Shown here: positions 7,399 to 22,032 of the stretch, piece after piece
Layout of the letters: every line of letters starts with the position of its first letter
Position numbering within the stretch: position 1 is the first letter of the stretch
From: Alphaproteobacteria bacterium
Lineage (GTDB): Bacteria > Pseudomonadota > Alphaproteobacteria > ATCC43930 > CGMCC-115725
Direction: 5' to 3'
Assembly: GCA_019241915.1 (NCBI GenBank)
Contig: JAFAWI010000074.1
Coordinates: 1 to 28,487, forward strand
DNA length: 28,487 bases
Notes under the pieces: model-generated
What the model saw: the letters and a program-made list of their open reading frames with translations, nothing else
Told to the model about the DNA's origin: nothing
Database searches by the model: none
Position numbers and translations under genes: made by a program

Positions 7399-10300
7399 AT
7401 GAACGACATCGCCCGGGCGGCGGACAAAGTGCCTCTGGCGGCCTGTGACGCCGGCGCTCTCGCCGGCTCGACGGCGCTCATTGTCCTCGGCATGCACCGC
7501 AGCGGCACGTCGGCGCTGGCTGGGATGCTGCATCATCTCGGCGTTGCGCTGGGCGAGCGGCTCATGCCGGCCACGCCGGACAATCCCCGCGGGTATTGGG
7601 AGCACAGCGATATCGTCGCGATCAACCATCGGCTGATGGCGACGCTGGGTCACGGCTGGGACGATCTGCGCCCGATGCCGGCCGGTTTCTTGCGCGAGCG
7701 CGCAGCGGCCGAGGCGAAGGACGCGCTCGCGAATGTGTTGCGCCGCGACTTCGCCGGCGCCGCCCTGTGGGCGGTCAAGGACCCTCGGCTATGCCCGCTG
7801 ATGCCGCTGTGGGGTCGTCTGATGGCACAGGAGCGGGTCGGGACGCGCTATCTGCTGGCGATCCGCCATCCGCTTGACGTTCTGGCCTCGCTGCGGACGC
7901 GCGACGGGCTGAGTGCGGAGCGTGCGGCTTTGTTGTGGCTGCGGCATGTGCTCGATGCGGAGCGGGCCACGCGCGGCGCGCGGCGCGTCATCGTCCATTA
8001 CGAAGAGCTCGTCCGCGATGCTGGTTGGCGCGGCGCGGCAACGCGCATCGCCAACGAGCTGGGCATCTCATGGCCGCGATCGCTTGATGCGGCAGCCCCC
8101 GCCATGAATGCGTTTCTGACGCCGGCGCTGCGCCGTCACCGCGCCAGCGACGCCGTCAAAGACGAGCCGCTGCCGCGCTGGCTGCGCGAAGCGTATCGAG
8201 CCTTCCGCGCCGGCGAGCTGCCTCTGAACGAGATCTGCGACGGGCTGAGCGGACAGCTCGCGGCGGCGGGCGACCTCTATCTGCCGATCCTCGAAGAGAC
8301 CGGGCGGGCGCTGGTCGAAGCGGGGCAACGGGAAGCCCGCGCCCAGCACGAGGCGGCGGAGCTGCGCGAGCGGATACGCCGCCTGGCCGACGACAGCGCC
8401 GTGCTGAAGCAGGCAGCGTCCGCGGTATCGCTTGGCGGCGCGGGCCCGCCGCCGCCGCTTTCGGCTGACGAGGCGTTTCCGCGGTGGATGATGGCGCGCG
8501 CCTCGACGGCCGTGGCACGCCAGGAATGGGTCGCCGAGCGAATGGCCTTGTGGCCGTTTGTGCCGGTGAGCGCGCTGGGGATGATCCTGGTGCCGGGCAG
8601 CGAGCCGTTGCTCGACCTGACGCTTCGCGCGCTCGAATCGCAAATCGCCGGCGACTGGCGCCTGCATGTGGTGTGCGAGACGGCGCGGCCGCCGGCGCTC
8701 GCAGCACCGGATCGCATCGTGTGGCACGAGGTTGCCGGGCGCCCGGCAGCCGAGCTTACCCGGCAACTGGCGGCGTCGGGGGCGCACTGGGTCGCGCTGA
8801 TTGACGCTGGCGACCAGTTGGCGCCGCACGCGTTGTTCGCGGTGGGCGACGCGTTCTTCCGGCACCCCGAGTGGCAGGCGCTCTATACCGACGAGGCCCG
8901 CATCGGCCCCGATGGCGGCTTGTCGGGGCCGCACTTCAAGCCCGACCTCAACCTCGAGCTGTTGCGCGGCTTACCCTATGTCGGCGCGCTCCTGGCCGTA
9001 CGCCGCGAAATCTTTGCCGAGCTGGGCGGCTTTGATCCGGCGTGGGACGGCACCGAGGAATACGATTTGGCGCTGCGGCTTGCGGAGAAAGCGGGCGAGG
9101 GCGGCTTCGGGCACGTCGCCGACATCCTTTACCATCGGCTGACAATCTCCGGGCGCTCGCGGCGGCCGGCGGCCGAGATTTGTGCCGACATGCCGAAGAT
9201 CGTCCAGGCGCATCTCGACAGGGTAGGAATCGCGGCGAGCGCCGAGCAGGGCGTACCGGCACACACCTGCCGCGTACGGTATCGGCATGACGGCGCGGAG
9301 CCGCTGGTCTCGATTATTGTGCCGACCAAGAACCAGGTGGCGCTGCTCAAGCGCTGCGTCGAGTCGGTGCTGAGGCTGACCGAATACGAAACTTACGAAG
9401 TCATCGTCGTCGACAACGGCAGCGACGATCCCGACGCCGCAGCTTACCTGCAAGCAATCGAAGACAAGCACGCCGAGATCGGCAGTCGCCTGAGGGTATT
9501 CCGCGACCCCGGCCCGTTCAACTTCGCGGCCCTCAACAACCGCGCCGTGCGGGAGGCCGCGCAGGGCGATTACATCTGCCTGCTGAACAACGACGCGGCG
9601 CCGCTCGATCGAGTTTGGCTCGGCGAGATGATGGCGCTGGCGCGGCGGCCCGATGTCGGCGCGGTCGGCGCCAAACTGACCTACCCAGACGGGCGTATCC
9701 AGCACGCCGGGGTTATCCTCGGGGTCGGCTGGGGCGCCCCGGCCGACCATCCCTATATCGGCGAGCCTGGGACCGCGATCGGTTATTGGGGACGGCTGCT
9801 GGTTGCGCAGGAGCTATCGGCGGTCACGGCCGCCTGTCTGGTGACGCGGCGTTCGGTATGGGATGCGGTGGGCGGGCTCGACGGGGAAAACTTCGCGGTC
9901 GCCTACAATGACGTCGACTATTGCCTGCGGGTGCGCGAGGCGGGCTATCGGGTCGTATGGACTCCGCAGGCCCGGCTGCTGCACGAAGGCAGCGCCAGCC
10001 AGCGTGCGGCAGCCGCAACAGGCAGTGTCGCCGACGGCAATGCGCGGTTTGTCCGCGAGCGCTTGGCGATGTACCGCAAATGGCTGCCGCGCATCGCCTT
10101 CGACCCGGCCTATAACCGCAACCTGTCCTCGCTGGGTCCCGGCTTTGCGGTTGAGATCGAAGGCGCGCCGACATGGGACCCGGAGTTTCGGCCGCGCGAG
10201 CGGGTGCTGGTCTACCCGGCGGACCGCGAGGGCTGCGGCGAGTACCGCATCATCGCGCCGAGCCGGGCGCTGGCAAAGTCGGGCACGGTACATGCTTATG

Positions 10301-11169
10301 AGACGATGCGCCTGCTGACACCGCCGGAAATCGCGCGCATGCAGCCGGACAGTATTGTCTTTCAGCGCCAGCTGGAACCCGGCCAGATCGAGGTCATCGA
10401 GTGGGTAAAGCACACCAGCAAGGCGCTGTGTGTCTTCGAGCTCGATGACCTGATCACCAACTTGCCGCCCAAGAGCGCGCATCGGCCGATGATTGCGGCG
10501 GACATCTCGCAGCGCCTCAAGCGCGCCCTCGCGCTGTGCGACCGCCTGGTGGTCAGCACCGAGGCGATGGCGCGCGCGTACGGCCGGATGTGCGGCGAGG
10601 TCACGGTCGTGCCGAACCGGCTGGAAAGCGCGCGCTGGCTCGGTCTGGCGCCGCGGCGGCGCGACGGGAAGCCGCGGGTCGGGTGGGCCGGGGCGATCGG
10701 CCATAGCGGGGATCTCGCGATCATTGCTTCCGTGGTCGAGGCGACGGCGAAAGAGGTCGAGTGGGTGTTCTTCGGCATGTGTCCGGACGTGCTGCTGCCG
10801 CATGTCGCCGAATTTCATCCGTGGGTGCCCGTGCACGATTACGCCGCCAAGCTCGCCTCGCTCGATCTCGACCTCGCCGTGGCGCCGCTCGAGCGGCACC
10901 CGTTCAACGAAGCGAAAAGCAATCTGCGCCTGCTCGAATATGGCGTGCTCGGTTATCCGGTGGTCTGCACCGACATTCTGCCCTATCAGGGCGCATTGCC
11001 GGTGACGCGCGTGGCAAACCGCCACCGGGACTGGGTCCGCGCGATCCGTGAGGCAATCGCCGACCGCACGGCGGCGCGGGCGGCGGGCGAAACGCTGCGC
11101 GCGGCGGTGGTCGCAGACTGGATGCTTGAGGATCATCTTGCCGAATGGCGGCGGGCTTGGCTGCCTTGA
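7399..11169 (+). CDS. Multidomain enzyme: sulfotransferase-like domain, two GT2 domains and a C-terminal GT-B/GT4-like domain; probable flagellin glycosyltransferase (FgtA/Fgt1-like)
   Basis: LGMHRSGTS..NPRGYWEH..KDPRL..RHPLDVLAS; LYTDE..PHFKPD..EYDLALRL; VSIIVPTKN..VDNGSDD..LLNND..QHAGVILG..AVTAACL..NDVDYCLR; YPADREGCGEYRIIAP..RVGWAG..PFNEAKSNLRLLEYG; located between flgL and fliC. Confidence 0.85.
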   Translation: MNDIARAADKVPLAACDAGALAGSTALIVLGMHRSGTSALAGMLHHLGVALGERLMPATPDNPRGYWEHSDIVAINHRLMATLGHGWDDLRPMPAGFLRERAAAEAKDALANVLRRDFAGAALWAVKDPRLCPLMPLWGRLMAQERVGTRYLLAIRHPLDVLASLRTRDGLSAERAALLWLRHVLDAERATRGARRVIVHYEELVRDAGWRGAATRIANELGISWPRSLDAAAPAMNAFLTPALRRHRASDAVKDEPLPRWLREAYRAFRAGELPLNEICDGLSGQLAAAGDLYLPILEETGRALVEAGQREARAQHEAAELRERIRRLADDSAVLKQAASAVSLGGAGPPPPLSADEAFPRWMMARASTAVARQEWVAERMALWPFVPVSALGMILVPGSEPLLDLTLRALESQIAGDWRLHVVCETARPPALAAPDRIVWHEVAGRPAAELTRQLAASGAHWVALIDAGDQLAPHALFAVGDAFFRHPEWQALYTDEARIGPDGGLSGPHFKPDLNLELLRGLPYVGALLAVRREIFAELGGFDPAWDGTEEYDLALRLAEKAGEGGFGHVADILYHRLTISGRSRRPAAEICADMPKIVQAHLDRVGIAASAEQGVPAHTCRVRYRHDGAEPLVSIIVPTKNQVALLKRCVESVLRLTEYETYEVIVVDNGSDDPDAAAYLQAIEDKHAEIGSRLRVFRDPGPFNFAALNNRAVREAAQGDYICLLNNDAAPLDRVWLGEMMALARRPDVGAVGAKLTYPDGRIQHAGVILGVGWGAPADHPYIGEPGTAIGYWGRLLVAQELSAVTAACLVTRRSVWDAVGGLDGENFAVAYNDVDYCLRVREAGYRVVWTPQARLLHEGSASQRAAAATGSVADGNARFVRERLAMYRKWLPRIAFDPAYNRNLSSLGPGFAVEIEGAPTWDPEFRPRERVLVYPADREGCGEYRIIAPSRALAKSGTVHAYETMRLLTPPEIARMQPDSIVFQRQLEPGQIEVIEWVKHTSKALCVFELDDLITNLPPKSAHRPMIAADISQRLKRALALCDRLVVSTEAMARAYGRMCGEVTVVPNRLESARWLGLAPRRRDGKPRVGWAGAIGHSGDLAIIASVVEATAKEVEWVFFGMCPDVLLPHVAEFHPWVPVHDYAAKLASLDLDLAVAPLERHPFNEAKSNLRLLEYGVLGYPVVCTDILPYQGALPVTRVANRHRDWVRAIREAIADRTAARAAGETLRAAVVADWMLEDHLAEWRRAWLP

Positions 11170-15016: not shown

Positions 15017-15332
15017 TCCGATCGGCGGCATGAGCGGCACCAGCCCGGTCGCACCGGCAACCTCAACCGAGCAGGCGGCGGTGCCGGCGAGCGCCGCCGG
15101 AACGGCCGCCTCACCGGCGGCTGGGCTCGACCTTGCCGATGTCGGACACACCGAAGCGCTGTTGCAGTCCATCTTGCAGGCGGCGAATGCAACCGGCGGG
15201 ATCGATCAGAGCAAGGTCGCGCAATTGCAGCAAGCGATCGCCTCGGGTGCTTATCAAGTCAATGCTCAATCGATCGCTCAAAAAATCGCCGAGCTGGAAG
15301 CCCTGCTCGGCACTGCGGGGGCGGTTCGATGA
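15009..15332 (+). CDS. flgM: Anti-sigma28 factor FlgM
   Basis: Disordered N-terminus, then IDQSKVAQLQQAIASGAYQVNAQSIAQKI (FlgM signature); GGGAGG SD-like sequence upstream of ATG 15009. Confidence 0.88.
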   Translation: MPDPIGGMSGTSPVAPATSTEQAAVPASAAGTAASPAAGLDLADVGHTEALLQSILQAANATGGIDQSKVAQLQQAIASGAYQVNAQSIAQKIAELEALLGTAGAVR

Positions 15333-15346
15333 CGCTCTGGACCGCC

Positions 15347-15523
15347 TCAGGAAGCGCAGCTCAGAACTTCGAAGATCGGATCGGACGCCGCTTGCTCCGC
15401 CTCGCGGCTGATCCAATCCTGAACCTCCGCCAGACGCGCGGCCGCCTGATGGATATCGTCGCGCTCTGCGATGTCGGCGATGGCCGCAATCAACTGCTCG
15501 ATGCACTGGCACGCGGTACGCAC
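15347..15523 (-). CDS. Possible small helical hypothetical protein (start uncertain; GTG 15523 assumed)
   Basis: CIEQLIAAIADIAERDDIHQAAARLAEVQDWISREAEQ is amphipathic and rich in G-starting codons; competes with the antisense ORF 15329..15643 in the same codon register. Confidence 0.3.
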   Translation of the reverse strand: MRTACQCIEQLIAAIADIAERDDIHQAAARLAEVQDWISREAEQAASDPIFEVLSCAS

Positions 15524-15758
15524 CGATGGACTGGCCGTTCGGCTTGGGCAGCGCGCGCCACGCGCGATGAAAGGCAATATCGCAGTGCGTTCCACCCGGT
15601 GGCTTCGCCTCGCGCTGTTCCCGCTATGGCCGGCTCGATCTGAACCGCCGCGAGCAATTTCTGCGCAGCGATCCTTTGCAAGATGCGGTACCAAAAAATG
15701 CTCTACGGCATGAGCTTGACGATAACCGGGATAAATTCAACCGCACGCCGGGAGTCGT

Positions 15759-17003: not shown

Positions 17004-19466
17004 ATGCAACGCGACCGCGCTTTTTATAAACTCAAACCCGTGCCGACCCGCCAGCCGCTTCGGGGCCCGTTGCCTGTCGCTTTCGCGATCGGCCTCGCCG
17101 CCGCGTTGCCGCCGGCCGGGCTGGTCGCGCTGCCGGGCGGATTGGCGATCCTCGGCACGCCGCAGACCGCCGTTGTGCTGCTCGCGGCGCTGCTGTTCGT
17201 GCCGGCGCTGGTTGCCGTAACGGTCGCGCTGCAAGGCTTCGAGGCGGTTGTCGGGCGGTTCCGGCGACTGACCGACCACGAGGCTTTCCAGATCGTGGCA
17301 CGGGTTCTGCTGAACGGGCTCGCATTTGCGTACCTGATCGGGGCGACCGTGCTGTCGCCGACGGTAGCGGGCGCGGCGCGGGCCGTGCCGGTCGCGGCGT
17401 TGAACCTTGCTTCGGGATGGCTTTTTCTGCTTGGCGCTATTCTGGACCCGCGCGCCTCGGCGCTGCGCCGCTGGGTCGCCTCGGTGTCGGATGCGGCCCT
17501 GCTGTCGATCCTGCTTGCCGCTGGCGACCTTCCGGCCGCGCCGCTGGCGCTGCTCTATCCCTATATCGCCATCAGCAACGGCCGGGTAGGAGACTGGCGG
17601 CGGCTGACGGCGGTCGTGGCGCTCGGGGCTTGCGGCTTTGCTCTGGTCGTCTCGGCGGCGCCGTTTTGGCAGGCGAACCCGCTGATGGCCGCCGGCATCC
17701 TGATCGCGATGACGGCGCTGCCGGCCTATGTCGGAATGCTGCTGCGGCGTTTTGCCGGTGCGGCGCGCGAAGCGGAGAGGGCGAATACGGCAAAGAACCG
17801 GTTTTTGGCGGCGCTCGGCGAGGATTTGCGGACACCGCTGCGCAGCCTCGCCCGGCTTGGGGCGACGGGTGAGCCGGGTCCCTCGGAGGCGGCGCGTATC
17901 CGGGTCTTGGCGCGCGCCATGCTGCTTCAGCTCGACGACGTCCTCAATTACGTCAAGATCGACTCCGGCACGTTTGCCCCCGAGGCGCGCTCCTTCGACG
18001 TTTATCGGTTGGTCAACGGGCTGGTCGCTTCGCTTCGGCCTACGGCCGGCGAGCGGGGCATCGCACTCGCTCTGCGGATCGACCCGCTGCTGCCATTCCT
18101 GCTGCGCGGCTGGCCCAATGAAGTGAGGCAGATTTTCAGCTGCCTGGTCACCAACACGATCTGCCACGCCTCAGCCGGAAGCAAAGTCCACATCGAGCTC
18201 GATGCGGCGGCGGCCGAGGCGGAACGGGTTACAGTCGGTTTCAAGGTGACGACCAGCGAACTCGACAACCGTCTGGACAATGAAGACGATCCGCCAGAGG
18301 TCGCGATCGGTCGACATTTGGCGCTGTCGGTCGCAGAGCGGATGGCGGGTCTGATGGGCGGCTGCGTCGAAATGCAAGCCGGCGCGGGCGGCCTGGTGCT
18401 GCGCGCCGAGTTGCCGTTCGCGATCGATCAAACGGCGGCACGGCCGCCGCTCGATCTTGCACAACTGCCGGTGTTGATTGTTACCGGGGACGCCGATCTT
18501 GTCGGCGAGCTGTTCGAACCGTTCGAAGCGTGGCGCGCCTCGCCGCGGTGGATCGGCGCCGCCGCGGCGGCGCACGATTACCTTGCGGCGATGCCGCCGC
18601 CGGCGCGACGTCCGGTGATCGTACTCGACGGGCGCGGAGACATATTGCCTGCCCTCAACTGGGCCCACCGCGCGCTGTCGCTGACCCCGGCATCGCGGCC
18701 TCAGATACTGTTTGTCGTCGACGAAGCTCGGATCGACAGCGTTGTCGGTTTGGCCGCGGACGAGATCGACGGCATTCTGCCGGCACCGTTCAACCTGGAT
18801 GGGCTGCGTGGCGCGCTGCATGCGCTGTGGCTCGAACCCGAAGACTGGTTTCTCGCCTCCGCAGCCGATGAGGAGTCTCAGCCGCCTGCGGTCGCGGCGC
18901 GGGCCCGACCGCCGGCCGAGATCGAAGATATGGCTGCTCCGCCGCTGCCGGCAGGCGCGTTCGCAGCCGGACCGGGGCCTGCGGGGACGGCCCCGCGGCG
19001 GCGCGAGGTTCTGGTTGCGACGGGAAATACCGCCAATCGCAAGCTGATGGCGTCGTTGCTTGAGCGCGCCGGCCACTCGGTGCATCTGGCCGACAGCACC
19101 GCAGCGAGCCTGCGCATTGTCTCGACGCAGGAGATCGACCTGTTGCTGCTGGACCTGACGAGTTCGTCAGAAGCCGACTGGGAGGCCGCGCGCCGCTGCC
19201 GGCGGACCCGCCCGCGCACATCGATCGTTGCGTTGTCGAACGACCCGCCCGCGACGGCACGACGGCTCGCGCGCGACATTGGCATCGACGCAATACTGAC
19301 CAAGCCGGTCGAACCGAAGCGCCTGCTGGCGGCTATCGATGCGGTGTTCGGCGGCGGTGCGGCGGTGACGCAGCTTGCGGCGCATCGGCGCCGCGGTGCG
19401 GGCAGTCCGGCGAAGCGGTCCGAACCGGCCGAGCTTCCATCGGTCGATCAGGATCAAGGGGTCTAA
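17004..19466 (+). CDS. RpfC-like multi-TM hybrid sensor pseudokinase (TM sensor-HisKA*-HATPase*-REC*-REC); start uncertain
   Basis: Multiple TM helices with PRASALRR..SD, IAISNGR, PFWQANPL; EAERANTAKNRFLAALGEDLRTPL (H-box His replaced by Glu); N-box LVTN retained, G boxes degenerate; two receiver folds (VIVLDG..LPAPF and LLLLDL..VALS..LTKPV). Confidence 0.78.
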   Translation: MQRDRAFYKLKPVPTRQPLRGPLPVAFAIGLAAALPPAGLVALPGGLAILGTPQTAVVLLAALLFVPALVAVTVALQGFEAVVGRFRRLTDHEAFQIVARVLLNGLAFAYLIGATVLSPTVAGAARAVPVAALNLASGWLFLLGAILDPRASALRRWVASVSDAALLSILLAAGDLPAAPLALLYPYIAISNGRVGDWRRLTAVVALGACGFALVVSAAPFWQANPLMAAGILIAMTALPAYVGMLLRRFAGAAREAERANTAKNRFLAALGEDLRTPLRSLARLGATGEPGPSEAARIRVLARAMLLQLDDVLNYVKIDSGTFAPEARSFDVYRLVNGLVASLRPTAGERGIALALRIDPLLPFLLRGWPNEVRQIFSCLVTNTICHASAGSKVHIELDAAAAEAERVTVGFKVTTSELDNRLDNEDDPPEVAIGRHLALSVAERMAGLMGGCVEMQAGAGGLVLRAELPFAIDQTAARPPLDLAQLPVLIVTGDADLVGELFEPFEAWRASPRWIGAAAAAHDYLAAMPPPARRPVIVLDGRGDILPALNWAHRALSLTPASRPQILFVVDEARIDSVVGLAADEIDGILPAPFNLDGLRGALHALWLEPEDWFLASAADEESQPPAVAARARPPAEIEDMAAPPLPAGAFAAGPGPAGTAPRRREVLVATGNTANRKLMASLLERAGHSVHLADSTAASLRIVSTQEIDLLLLDLTSSSEADWEAARRCRRTRPRTSIVALSNDPPATARRLARDIGIDAILTKPVEPKRLLAAIDAVFGGGAAVTQLAAHRRRGAGSPAKRSEPAELPSVDQDQGV

Positions 19467-20745: not shown

Positions 20746-21054
20746 CGTCCGTACGATCGAGGTTTCTCTTCGGGCTGACAATGTGGCTGACGTTTGTCGG
20801 TGTTCCGGGCTGGGTTGCTCGCCGGCCGAGGCGGGGTCGCGGTAGCGCGGCTGCCGCGCGATTCCCGCGCGCCGATTGCGGCCGCTGCCGGGGAAGGCGC
20901 CGATGCCGCAGCCGCAGGCGGCACAGCCGTTTCCAGGGCGGGAAAAAAATTTAGGACTTTTTCAAGAAGCTCCAACTTATACGGGGGGCGAAATAAACAC
21001 CGGGAGGGGCACTCTCGGCCCGGCAGAACGGCTATCAACGTCAGCGGAGGTCTC

Positions 21055-22032
21055 GTGTTCGAGAGGATCGTCAACGAGGCCAATGACGCGGTCATGGTCG
21101 CCGAAATCAATCCGGAGACCGGTCCGGGTTTCCGAATCATCTACACCAACGCTGCCTTTAGCCGCATTTTCGGCTACGCCGCAGATGAAGTCGTCGGCCG
21201 GTCGCCGCGGTTGCTGCAAGGACCGGAGACCTGCGCCGACACGATCCGCGAAATCAGTGCCGTGGTGCACGGGGGCAGCTCGATCCGTCGACGCATCCTC
21301 AATTACAACAAGGCCGGACGGCCGGTCTGGGTCGATGTCAACATCGTGCCTCTCCCCGGCTTTGACGGCGAGATCCGCCGGTTTGCTGCGATCGAGCGGG
21401 ATGTCACAAACGAGGTGCGGCACGAGGCGCAGCTCGAGCAGCTCGCCTATGTCGATCCGCTGACAAAGCTGGCCAACCGTCGCTATTTCGAGCAAACGCT
21501 GCAACGCGAGTTGTCGCGTGCGCAGCGGCTGCACTTGCCGCTGTCGCTGGCGATCCTTGACATCGACCATTTCAAGCAGGTCAACGACCGTTGGGGCCAT
21601 CCGATCGGCGACCGGGTGATCCATGGGGTGGCGCAGTCGCTGTTAAAATCGGTGCGCGCCTATGACTGCATCGCCCGGATCGGTGGTGAGGAATTCACGG
21701 TCCTGCTGCCCGGCGCCGACCTCGACGCGGGCAAACGCGTCATCGACCGGGTCTGCGCGGACGTCCGGACCACCGTGAAGGTCGAGCTCAGTGAGACGAC
21801 TGTCACCGTCACCTGCAGTGCCGGCTTGACCGCTCGGTGCGGGGCAGCGGACGCGGGTGATAAGATGATTCTGCGCGCCGATCGCGCCCTGTACATGGCG
21901 AAGAATGCCGGTCGGAACCGCGTGGCTGTCTTCGATTCTGCCGAGGACGACGCGGGCGACTCCGGACCTGGCCCAGCCTGGATGGCCAACGCCAGCGCGA
22001 CCGCGCAGGATATACCGGTGAAGGTCGATTGA
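21055..22032 (+). CDS. PAS-GGDEF diguanylate cyclase (start GTG 21055, not 20794)
   Basis: GGAGG SD at 21046-21050; PAS IIYTNAAFSRIFGY..SPRLLQGPET; DPLTKLANRR, DIDHFKQVNDRWGHPIGD, RAYD-x5-GGEEF (active site and I-site both intact). Confidence 0.92.
   Translation: MFERIVNEANDAVMVAEINPETGPGFRIIYTNAAFSRIFGYAADEVVGRSPRLLQGPETCADTIREISAVVHGGSSIRRRILNYNKAGRPVWVDVNIVPLPGFDGEIRRFAAIERDVTNEVRHEAQLEQLAYVDPLTKLANRRYFEQTLQRELSRAQRLHLPLSLAILDIDHFKQVNDRWGHPIGDRVIHGVAQSLLKSVRAYDCIARIGGEEFTVLLPGADLDAGKRVIDRVCADVRTTVKVELSETTVTVTCSAGLTARCGAADAGDKMILRADRALYMAKNAGRNRVAVFDSAEDDAGDSGPGPAWMANASATAQDIPVKVD

Follow-up and report, generated by a model that had tools for sequence, protein, structure and literature searches.

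A His-less hybrid kinase-like protein with an RpfC-type membrane domain encoded beside flagellar genes in an alphaproteobacterium

We analyzed a 28,487-nucleotide stretch of an alphaproteobacterial genome (contig JAFAWI010000074.1 of assembly GCA_019241915.1; hereafter, the window), in which flagellar genes are followed by a gene for a protein built like a hybrid histidine kinase with the membrane input domain of RpfC, the Xanthomonas sensor of diffusible signal factor (DSF). The gene order in the window is fliC, fliD, fliS, flgM, a small open reading frame, a gene for a tandem helix-turn-helix (HTH) protein, the kinase-like gene at positions 17004 to 19466, and a convergent gene for a tetratricopeptide repeat (TPR) protein. 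The kinase-like gene is an intact plus-strand reading frame for 820 amino acids (aa); the public gene call starts 22 codons downstream and yields 798 aa. Its product, which we call the pseudokinase, has lost the phospho-His, the ATP-binding boxes, and the Mg-binding acidic pair while keeping the folds of the domains that carried them. Its domain map and its two flanking genes are given in Table 1.

Residues, relatives, and fold of the pseudokinase

When the window protein was aligned with canonical kinases, its H-box read FLAALGEDLRTPL where canonical relatives have FLAxMSHELRTPL, and the position of the phospho-His was taken by Glu273. The N-box Asn384 of the catalytic domain is retained, a deletion of about 10 residues removes the G1 box (DxGxG) together with the F box, and the G2 box reads GRHLALSV versus the canonical GGTGLGLAI. 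HisKA (16 bits) and HATPase_c (17 bits; cut-off, 26) both score below threshold, and the sole Pfam domain above its cut-off is REC2 (aa 669 to 778, 46 bits). In REC2, V-A-T-G-N replaces ILVVDDN, which puts T673-G674 in place of the acidic pair; D717, S745, and K767-P768 are retained. The REC1-like domain that precedes it has ILPAPF at the expected Lys position and retains, where strand 3 ends, the invariant D542 of the sequence VDGRGD. The protein stops 38 residues past REC2, and no HPt domain or HPt remnant was found in it or anywhere else in the window.

Table 1. Domain map of the pseudokinase and the genes on either side of it
Feature	Positions	Strand	Length or basis
His-less hybrid kinase-like protein with RpfC-type input domain	17004..19466	+	820 aa
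Two extra N-terminal transmembrane helices, aa 23-77	17070..17234	+	AlphaFold2 helices 23-42 and 53-77
Decayed DSF docking motif FRRLTDHEAFQ, aa 84-96	17253..17291	+	comparison with RpfC
RpfC-type membrane core, aa 86-250	17259..17753	+	motifs DPRxSxLRR, ISNG, PFWQ
Dead DHp domain, aa 251-325	17754..17978	+	Glu273 (17820-17822) at the phospho-His site
Degenerate catalytic (ATP-binding) domain, aa 326-478	17979..18437	+	alignment and fold match
REC1-like central domain, aa 484-612	18453..18839	+	five predicted strand-helix units, ILPAPF, no Lys
Pro/Ala-rich linker, aa 613-664, poorly conserved, predicted disordered	18840..18995	+	
REC2, aa 666-782	18999..19349	+	Pfam 46 bits and fold match
Short C-terminal tail (VTQLAAHRRR...) and stop codon	19350..19466	+	relatives' dead HPt-like domain (roughly 140 aa here) missing
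Tandem-HTH (XRE-type) regulator, about 352 aa	15759..16826	+	directly upstream of the pseudokinase in all loci
Convergent TPR-repeat protein, 426 aa	19501..20781	-	3' end faces the pseudokinase

A search of 5.8 billion proteins returned about 50 homologs at 45 to 60% identity. Those with names come mostly from metagenome-assembled genomes of the Stellaceae (NCBI family now Allostellaceae, Rhodospirillales), and 43 relatives were aligned. The His position is occupied by E or D in 42 of these and by G in the remaining one, and all 43 lack both the G1 box and the acidic pair of REC2. In most relatives, the C terminus bears a further domain of about 110 aa that is similar to an HPt and matches Pfam Hpt or CATASP weakly; it reads AVQAMxACTxVFG, so that the HPt His has been lost too. 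This domain is missing entirely in the window protein and in three other members. Between REC2 and the dead HPt, the family alignment contains a near-invariant V-T-E-L-A-S-H-P-R-F with a conserved His; the window version of this motif is VTQLAAHRRR (19365 to 19394, aa 788 to 797). One protein, G071, was considered as a longer copy of the window gene and set aside, its E-value being the same as the window's by coincidence and its identity just 46%.

We calculated ratios of nonsynonymous to synonymous substitution rates (dN/dS) with the Nei-Gojobori method for three ortholog pairs of the family. The overall values were 0.16 to 0.22, with 0.05 to 0.28 across the folded domains: 0.19 to 0.28 for the membrane domain, 0.10 to 0.14 for DHp, 0.20 to 0.25 for the catalytic domain, 0.06 to 0.19 for REC1, and 0.05 to 0.18 for REC2. 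The linker reached higher values, to 0.37. Mean column identity was 86% for the two extra N-terminal helices and 75 to 86% for the membrane domain; REC1, with invariant Arg, Trp, and Asp residues, was the most conserved cytoplasmic part at 83%. An AlphaFold2 model of the full protein retained all folds at a predicted local distance difference test (pLDDT) score of 77.7. In fold searches, the catalytic domain matched that of ETR1 (Z = 21.5), the DHp-catalytic core matched GacS and RetS (Z = 20.3 for both) and DivL (Z = 17.8), and REC2 matched many receivers at Z scores of 18 to 20. REC1 had secondary structure assigned by DSSP and a pLDDT of 80 to 94 in the full model; folded alone, it gave a model too poor for comparison (pLDDT 52), and sequence comparison of REC1 with receivers returned no significant match.

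Thus, with E or D at the His position across the family, low dN/dS, and retained folds, the protein is a folded, selected pseudo-hybrid-kinase and not a one-off lesion. An earlier note, made from the letters of the window, had described a Glu in the H-box at the phospho-His site, a missing G1 box with an altered G2 box, a REC1 without its acidic pair and Lys (LPAP), a REC2 with Asp, Ser, and KP but ATGN for the acidic pocket, and no HPt. The alignments agree on every count, with the nuances that the F box is deleted as well and that REC1 keeps D542. The view in that note that the intact 820-codon frame speaks against a pseudogene is likewise borne out by end-to-end alignment with relatives and the low dN/dS of the family; orthologs do share the loss of His under purifying selection, and the likeness it drew to DivL-type pseudokinases is matched by a kinase core that falls beside GacS, RetS, and DivL.

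Descent of the membrane domain from DSF receptor kinases

A profile of the membrane region, searched against 1.84 billion representative proteins, matched 1774 of them, 920 at an E-value of 1e-10 or better. Among the best 150 matches, about 100 run directly into a canonical KxxFLAxMSHELRTPL. The profile matched an RpfC of 711 aa (P0170) at 2.2e-24; the gene order there is recJ, prfB, lysS, rpfG (REC plus HD-GYP), the P0170 gene, rpfF, and rpfB, and the crotonase neighbor compares with RpfF of Xanthomonas (Xcc) at 1.9e-104. A second match, P0184, has a receiver that compares with the crystallized RpfC receiver at 1e-45. The window protein and RpfC also share the motifs D-x-E-x-x-Q, S-x-x-RR, a GNG-like motif, and PFWQ; in both, a short juxtamembrane link leads directly into the DHp helix, and both have a hybrid architecture with a receiver. 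The profile match and the aligned motifs show that the resemblance reflects real homology between this membrane domain and that of RpfC.

Nonetheless, the two proteins differ at several points. RpfC begins about 20 residues ahead of its D-S-E-H-x-Q motif and covers only positions 44 to 212 of the membrane profile, whereas the window family has two helices more (positions 1 to 43); the nearest canonical kinases from the same bacterial family have these helices too. Unlike RpfC, the window protein has a REC1-like domain and an incomplete docking motif, and it is without the phospho-His, the G1 and F boxes, the receiver acidic pair, and an HPt domain. A MASE-type input domain was considered and rejected; a feature search had suggested MASE2, PilS, and further MASE domains, and a profile comparison with a MASE6 protein came back empty.

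RpfC needs R15, D17, S18 (Ser or Thr only), E19, and Q22 for DSF sensing (Cai et al., PMC5391125). The docking motif of the window protein, L-T-D-H-E-A-F-Q, keeps three of these five residues: the equivalents of D17, E19, and Q22 are present, R15 is replaced by Leu, and S18 is replaced by His. Most of the flagellar-linked subfamily reads G-G-E-Y-R-Q, with Gly as the equivalent of S18. All canonical kinases examined, those of the same bacterial family included, keep R-x-D-S/T-E-H-x-Q. Judging from this decayed motif, RpfC-style DSF sensing by the present-day window protein is doubtful. Since selection still acts on the membrane domain, the protein probably retains an input of some kind linked to the membrane.

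We also built a quick, unrooted FastTree phylogeny from 131 segments spanning the membrane domain and kinase core. Of 34 His-less rows, 30 fell into one clade of 31 rows with a support of 99; it comprises the subfamily of the window protein, a subfamily of paralogs that have Q in place of the His, and several others with R, N, G, or T. This clade is nested among canonical kinases of 910 to 950 aa (P0121, P0122, and P0125) with the domain order TM (transmembrane), HisKA, HATPase_c, REC1-like, REC, and HPt, while RpfC proper forms the other main branch of the superfamily tree. The tree points to a single, ancient loss of the His as the likely course of events. The three canonical kinases share with the pseudokinase its extended membrane domain and its domain order and are its nearest relatives with a His. 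In contrast to the pseudokinase, they read MSHELRTPLN, give full HATPase_c, REC, and HPt scores, keep R-x-D-S-E-H-x-Q, and adjoin an RpfF-like synthase and a REC-PAS kinase rather than flagellar genes. At the P0122 locus, for example, a REC-PAS-HisKA-HATPase gene precedes the kinase gene, which is convergent with a crotonase gene (L020:9783-10757, minus strand); the crotonase scores 3e-51 against RpfF versus 1e-14 against ordinary hydratases.

We further surveyed 81 genomes of the window's bacterial family. An RpfF-like synthase was present in 33 of them, in seven genera, and lay about 3 kb from the RpfC-type gene where both were mapped; in the five genera checked, the RpfC-type gene beside the synthase reads MSHELRTPLN, and the kinases read in six of the seven genera are canonical. 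Such synthases beside RpfC-type kinases in seven genera suggest widespread DSF-type quorum sensing outside Xanthomonadales and Burkholderia. None of the nine genomes of the window's own genus, most of them at least 94% complete, contained RpfF, and the RpfC-type proteins read in that genus were all His-less. In the window's genome (87% complete), two queries for RpfF found only generic crotonases and a search for HD-GYP (PF13487) found none; rpfF, rpfG, and rpfB were found neither near the window gene, as they are around RpfC, nor elsewhere in the genome. Apart from the pseudokinase, such a membrane domain occurs there only in a His-less paralog encoded on contig C214 (L017:2270-4550, minus strand), in which Q replaces the His, REC2 is absent, the HPt is dead, and the docking motif, RGDREHEQ, is nearly intact. 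The gene for this paralog is directly downstream of one for a REC-PAS-HisKA-HATPase kinase that seems to be active (L017:4696-6303, minus strand), an arrangement also seen at the P0122 locus. Altogether, the likely course is that, in the window's lineage, the synthase of a DSF-type system was lost and the receptors became non-catalytic.

These results bear unevenly on what the earlier note had made of the membrane domain. Its claims that the transmembrane region follows RpfC and that about two N-terminal helices are added hold in the profile search and, for the helices, in the AlphaFold2 model. The conversion of an RpfC-like sensor stands as descent of a pseudokinase from DSF receptors, but the change is an old one that extends over the clade and not a recent event in one gene. 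Of the proposed role as a DSF signal receptor, the ancestral RpfC-type input survives, and sensing today is unsupported in view of the decayed docking motif. The search that it proposed for rpfF, rpfG, and a canonical rpfC turned up neither an rpfF nor an HD-GYP gene, and the RpfC-type membrane domain recurred only in the His-less C214 paralog. Sequestration of RpfF, which the receiver of RpfC performs and which the note had offered as a possible output, is unlikely because no such partner was found in the genome, nor in any of the nine genomes of the genus.

The flagellar locus and the neighboring genes

The gene order of the window recurs at seven public loci, as far as each contig reaches, and one of the seven comes from a different 50%-identity cluster. 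Both immediate neighbors are better conserved than the pseudokinase itself, the HTH regulator being 69% identical to its counterpart at L019 and the TPR protein 63% identical to that at L001. The TPR protein consists of about nine repeats of about 40 aa (PLEWAMTQNNLGNAL...LGERE...AVAAYREAL), of which just one reaches Pfam TPR_10. The 3' ends of the TPR and pseudokinase genes overlap by about 18 nucleotides in most relatives and lie 34 nucleotides apart in the window. A full-length TPR ortholog and a pseudokinase ortholog occur in the same six of the 81 family genomes, side by side. Each of the six also has the flagellar cluster, and both genes are missing from the three congeners that have no FliD.

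The HTH regulator is present in 14 of the 15 family genomes with this type of FliD, and in the exception FliD is at a contig edge. The conserved C-terminal domain of the tandem-HTH protein (about 190 aa) has no Pfam match. Given its distribution, the protein is a candidate for a dedicated regulator of the flagellar locus. A promoter and terminator scan and a search for the sigma-28 consensus revealed no convincing element near the gene starts.

Three other genes of the window deserve mention. An open reading frame of 104 aa follows flgM (15329 to 15643, plus strand); it has no Pfam match and is kept in position in most related loci (108 to 115 aa), and its position suggests a FlgN-like chaperone. 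Between flgL and fliC, a gene conserved in position (7399 to 11169, plus strand) encodes a 1256-aa protein with a sulfotransferase-like N terminus and GT2 glycosyltransferase domains. A PAS-GGDEF diguanylate cyclase gene adjoining the TPR gene (20794 to 22032, plus strand) was considered as part of the module and rejected, as other loci have DAO or TIR genes there.

Proposed function and alternative explanations

We consider it probable that the pseudokinase is a phosphorylation-independent membrane scaffold that acts by binding partners and is tied to flagellar control. Under this proposal, an RpfC-type membrane input is joined to DHp, catalytic, REC1-like, and REC2 domains whose folds are retained, in a protein that would descend from DSF-type receptor kinases still working beside RpfF-like synthases in sister genera. 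A membrane-derived signal would be relayed without phosphotransfer, by conformational change and partner binding. The partners would be the dedicated TPR neighbor and probably the tandem-HTH regulator, reached through the TPR protein or directly, and the outcome would be a tuning of flagellar gene expression or motility. That the pseudokinase cannot be phosphorylated, which partners it binds, and that its output is flagellar are points that we infer from sequence, predicted structure, and gene neighborhood. Possibly, the Glu or Asp conserved in place of the His acts as a mimic of phosphorylation. A more specific scenario, which we put forward tentatively and regard as possible at best, is that in one genus of a Stellaceae-like family the whole DSF receptor lineage turned into phosphorylation-dead scaffolds after the loss of the synthase and that one paralog, with its TPR partner, was wired onto an XRE-type regulator of late flagellar genes.

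Several observations weigh against a scaffold tied to flagellar control. REC2 retains its Asp, Ser, and Lys, so a foreign kinase could conceivably still phosphorylate it. In four other genera that have the flagellar cluster, no pseudokinase or TPR gene was found after the HTH regulator; since cluster and regulator occur there without the pair, the pseudokinase-TPR pair is an accessory unit on the regulator of the flagellar locus and not a core part of flagellar control. All six genomes in which the two genes co-occur belong to one genus, and linkage and shared descent alone may yield the co-occurrence with flagella. The window copy itself lacks the C-terminal domain, sits on a long branch (0.55 versus 0.18 for P0003), and departs from the family at 55 of 339 conserved columns (16%), although most of the departures are conservative; moreover, the dN/dS values describe ortholog pairs of the family and not the window copy.

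Among the alternatives, the best placed is a kinase modulator like RetS or DivL, in which the dead DHp or REC domains would bind and tune an active histidine kinase; the soluble REC-PAS-HisKA-HATPase kinase beside the paralog is an example of such a target, and the flagellar neighbors would be either a downstream target or incidental. The kinase core has some of its best matches, by structure and by sequence, in RetS, GacS, and DivL; conservation of the DHp domain is strong (dN/dS, 0.10 to 0.14); and the C214 paralog and the nearest canonical kinase (L020) each directly follow a REC-PAS histidine kinase gene. RetS of Pseudomonas aeruginosa is likewise hybrid kinase-like with two receivers and works without its own phosphorelay output by binding GacS; unlike the window protein, it has a periplasmic carbohydrate-binding domain and a 7TM region of another type, and it keeps its His. 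DivL of Caulobacter shares a kinase fold without a phospho-His and a presumed protein-binding output (PMC4211667), but it has Tyr at the His position, PAS inputs, an intact ATP-binding domain, and no receivers, and it controls CckA rather than the regulator of a flagellar locus. However, no active kinase gene adjoins the pseudokinase in any of the eight loci, where the constant partners are the TPR protein and the HTH regulator, and we therefore judge a kinase modulator unlikely.

An orphan receptor that eavesdrops on the DSF-family fatty acids of neighboring bacteria and reports by conformational change would fit the RpfC-type input domain, the retained equivalents of D17, E19, and Q22, and the RpfF-like synthases of sister genera. 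Yet R15 is lost, the Ser/Thr requirement at S18 (PMC5391125) is unmet by the His of the window and by the Gly of most of the flagellar-linked subfamily, and it is the canonical kinases that all keep the full R-x-D-S/T-E-H-x-Q. This makes such a receptor quite improbable.

We also give little credence to REC1, rather than the membrane domain, as the main input site for a small molecule such as cyclic di-GMP (c-di-GMP), which is bound by the pseudo-receiver of ShkA from Caulobacter (PMC6969517). The order DHp, catalytic domain, REC1, flexible linker, and REC2 is that of ShkA (6qrj; PMC6969517), REC1 with its invariant residues is the best conserved cytoplasmic part, and a PAS-GGDEF gene is nearby in the window. 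In contrast, REC1 has no sequence similarity to the ShkA REC1 or to any receiver, its model alone was too poor for comparison, and the GGDEF neighbor is not conserved at other loci. ShkA differs from the window protein in being soluble and catalytically active, and it binds c-di-GMP through residues on the alpha4-beta5-alpha5 face of REC1 for which no counterparts could be matched in the window protein. The AlphaFold2 model aligned with 6qrj over model residues 303 to 783 with a root mean square deviation of 15. Finally, a decaying relic without function is very improbable: the lost C-terminal domain, the long branch, and the departures at well-conserved columns noted above would suit it, but the 820-codon frame is unbroken and its product aligns with relatives over the full length, most departures are conservative, the C-terminal domain is absent from three other members as well, and purifying selection acts on the family.

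Pseudo-histidine kinases are known from few cases, for example, DivL and RetS-like proteins, and a literature search found no description of His-less RpfC-type proteins. In the present case, a hybrid kinase of four or five domains has all of its phosphorelay sites dead while each domain is under purifying selection, and the automatic label "sensor histidine kinase RpfC" is misleading for such His-less proteins. With catalytic relatives paired with a synthase in sister genera, the family offers a natural before-and-after series for the repurposing of a receptor to protein binding. The phosphorylation-independent scaffold that we favor would make the pseudokinase a candidate new accessory controller of flagellar genes; if this holds true, an RpfC-type membrane input would feed into motility control without any phosphorelay.

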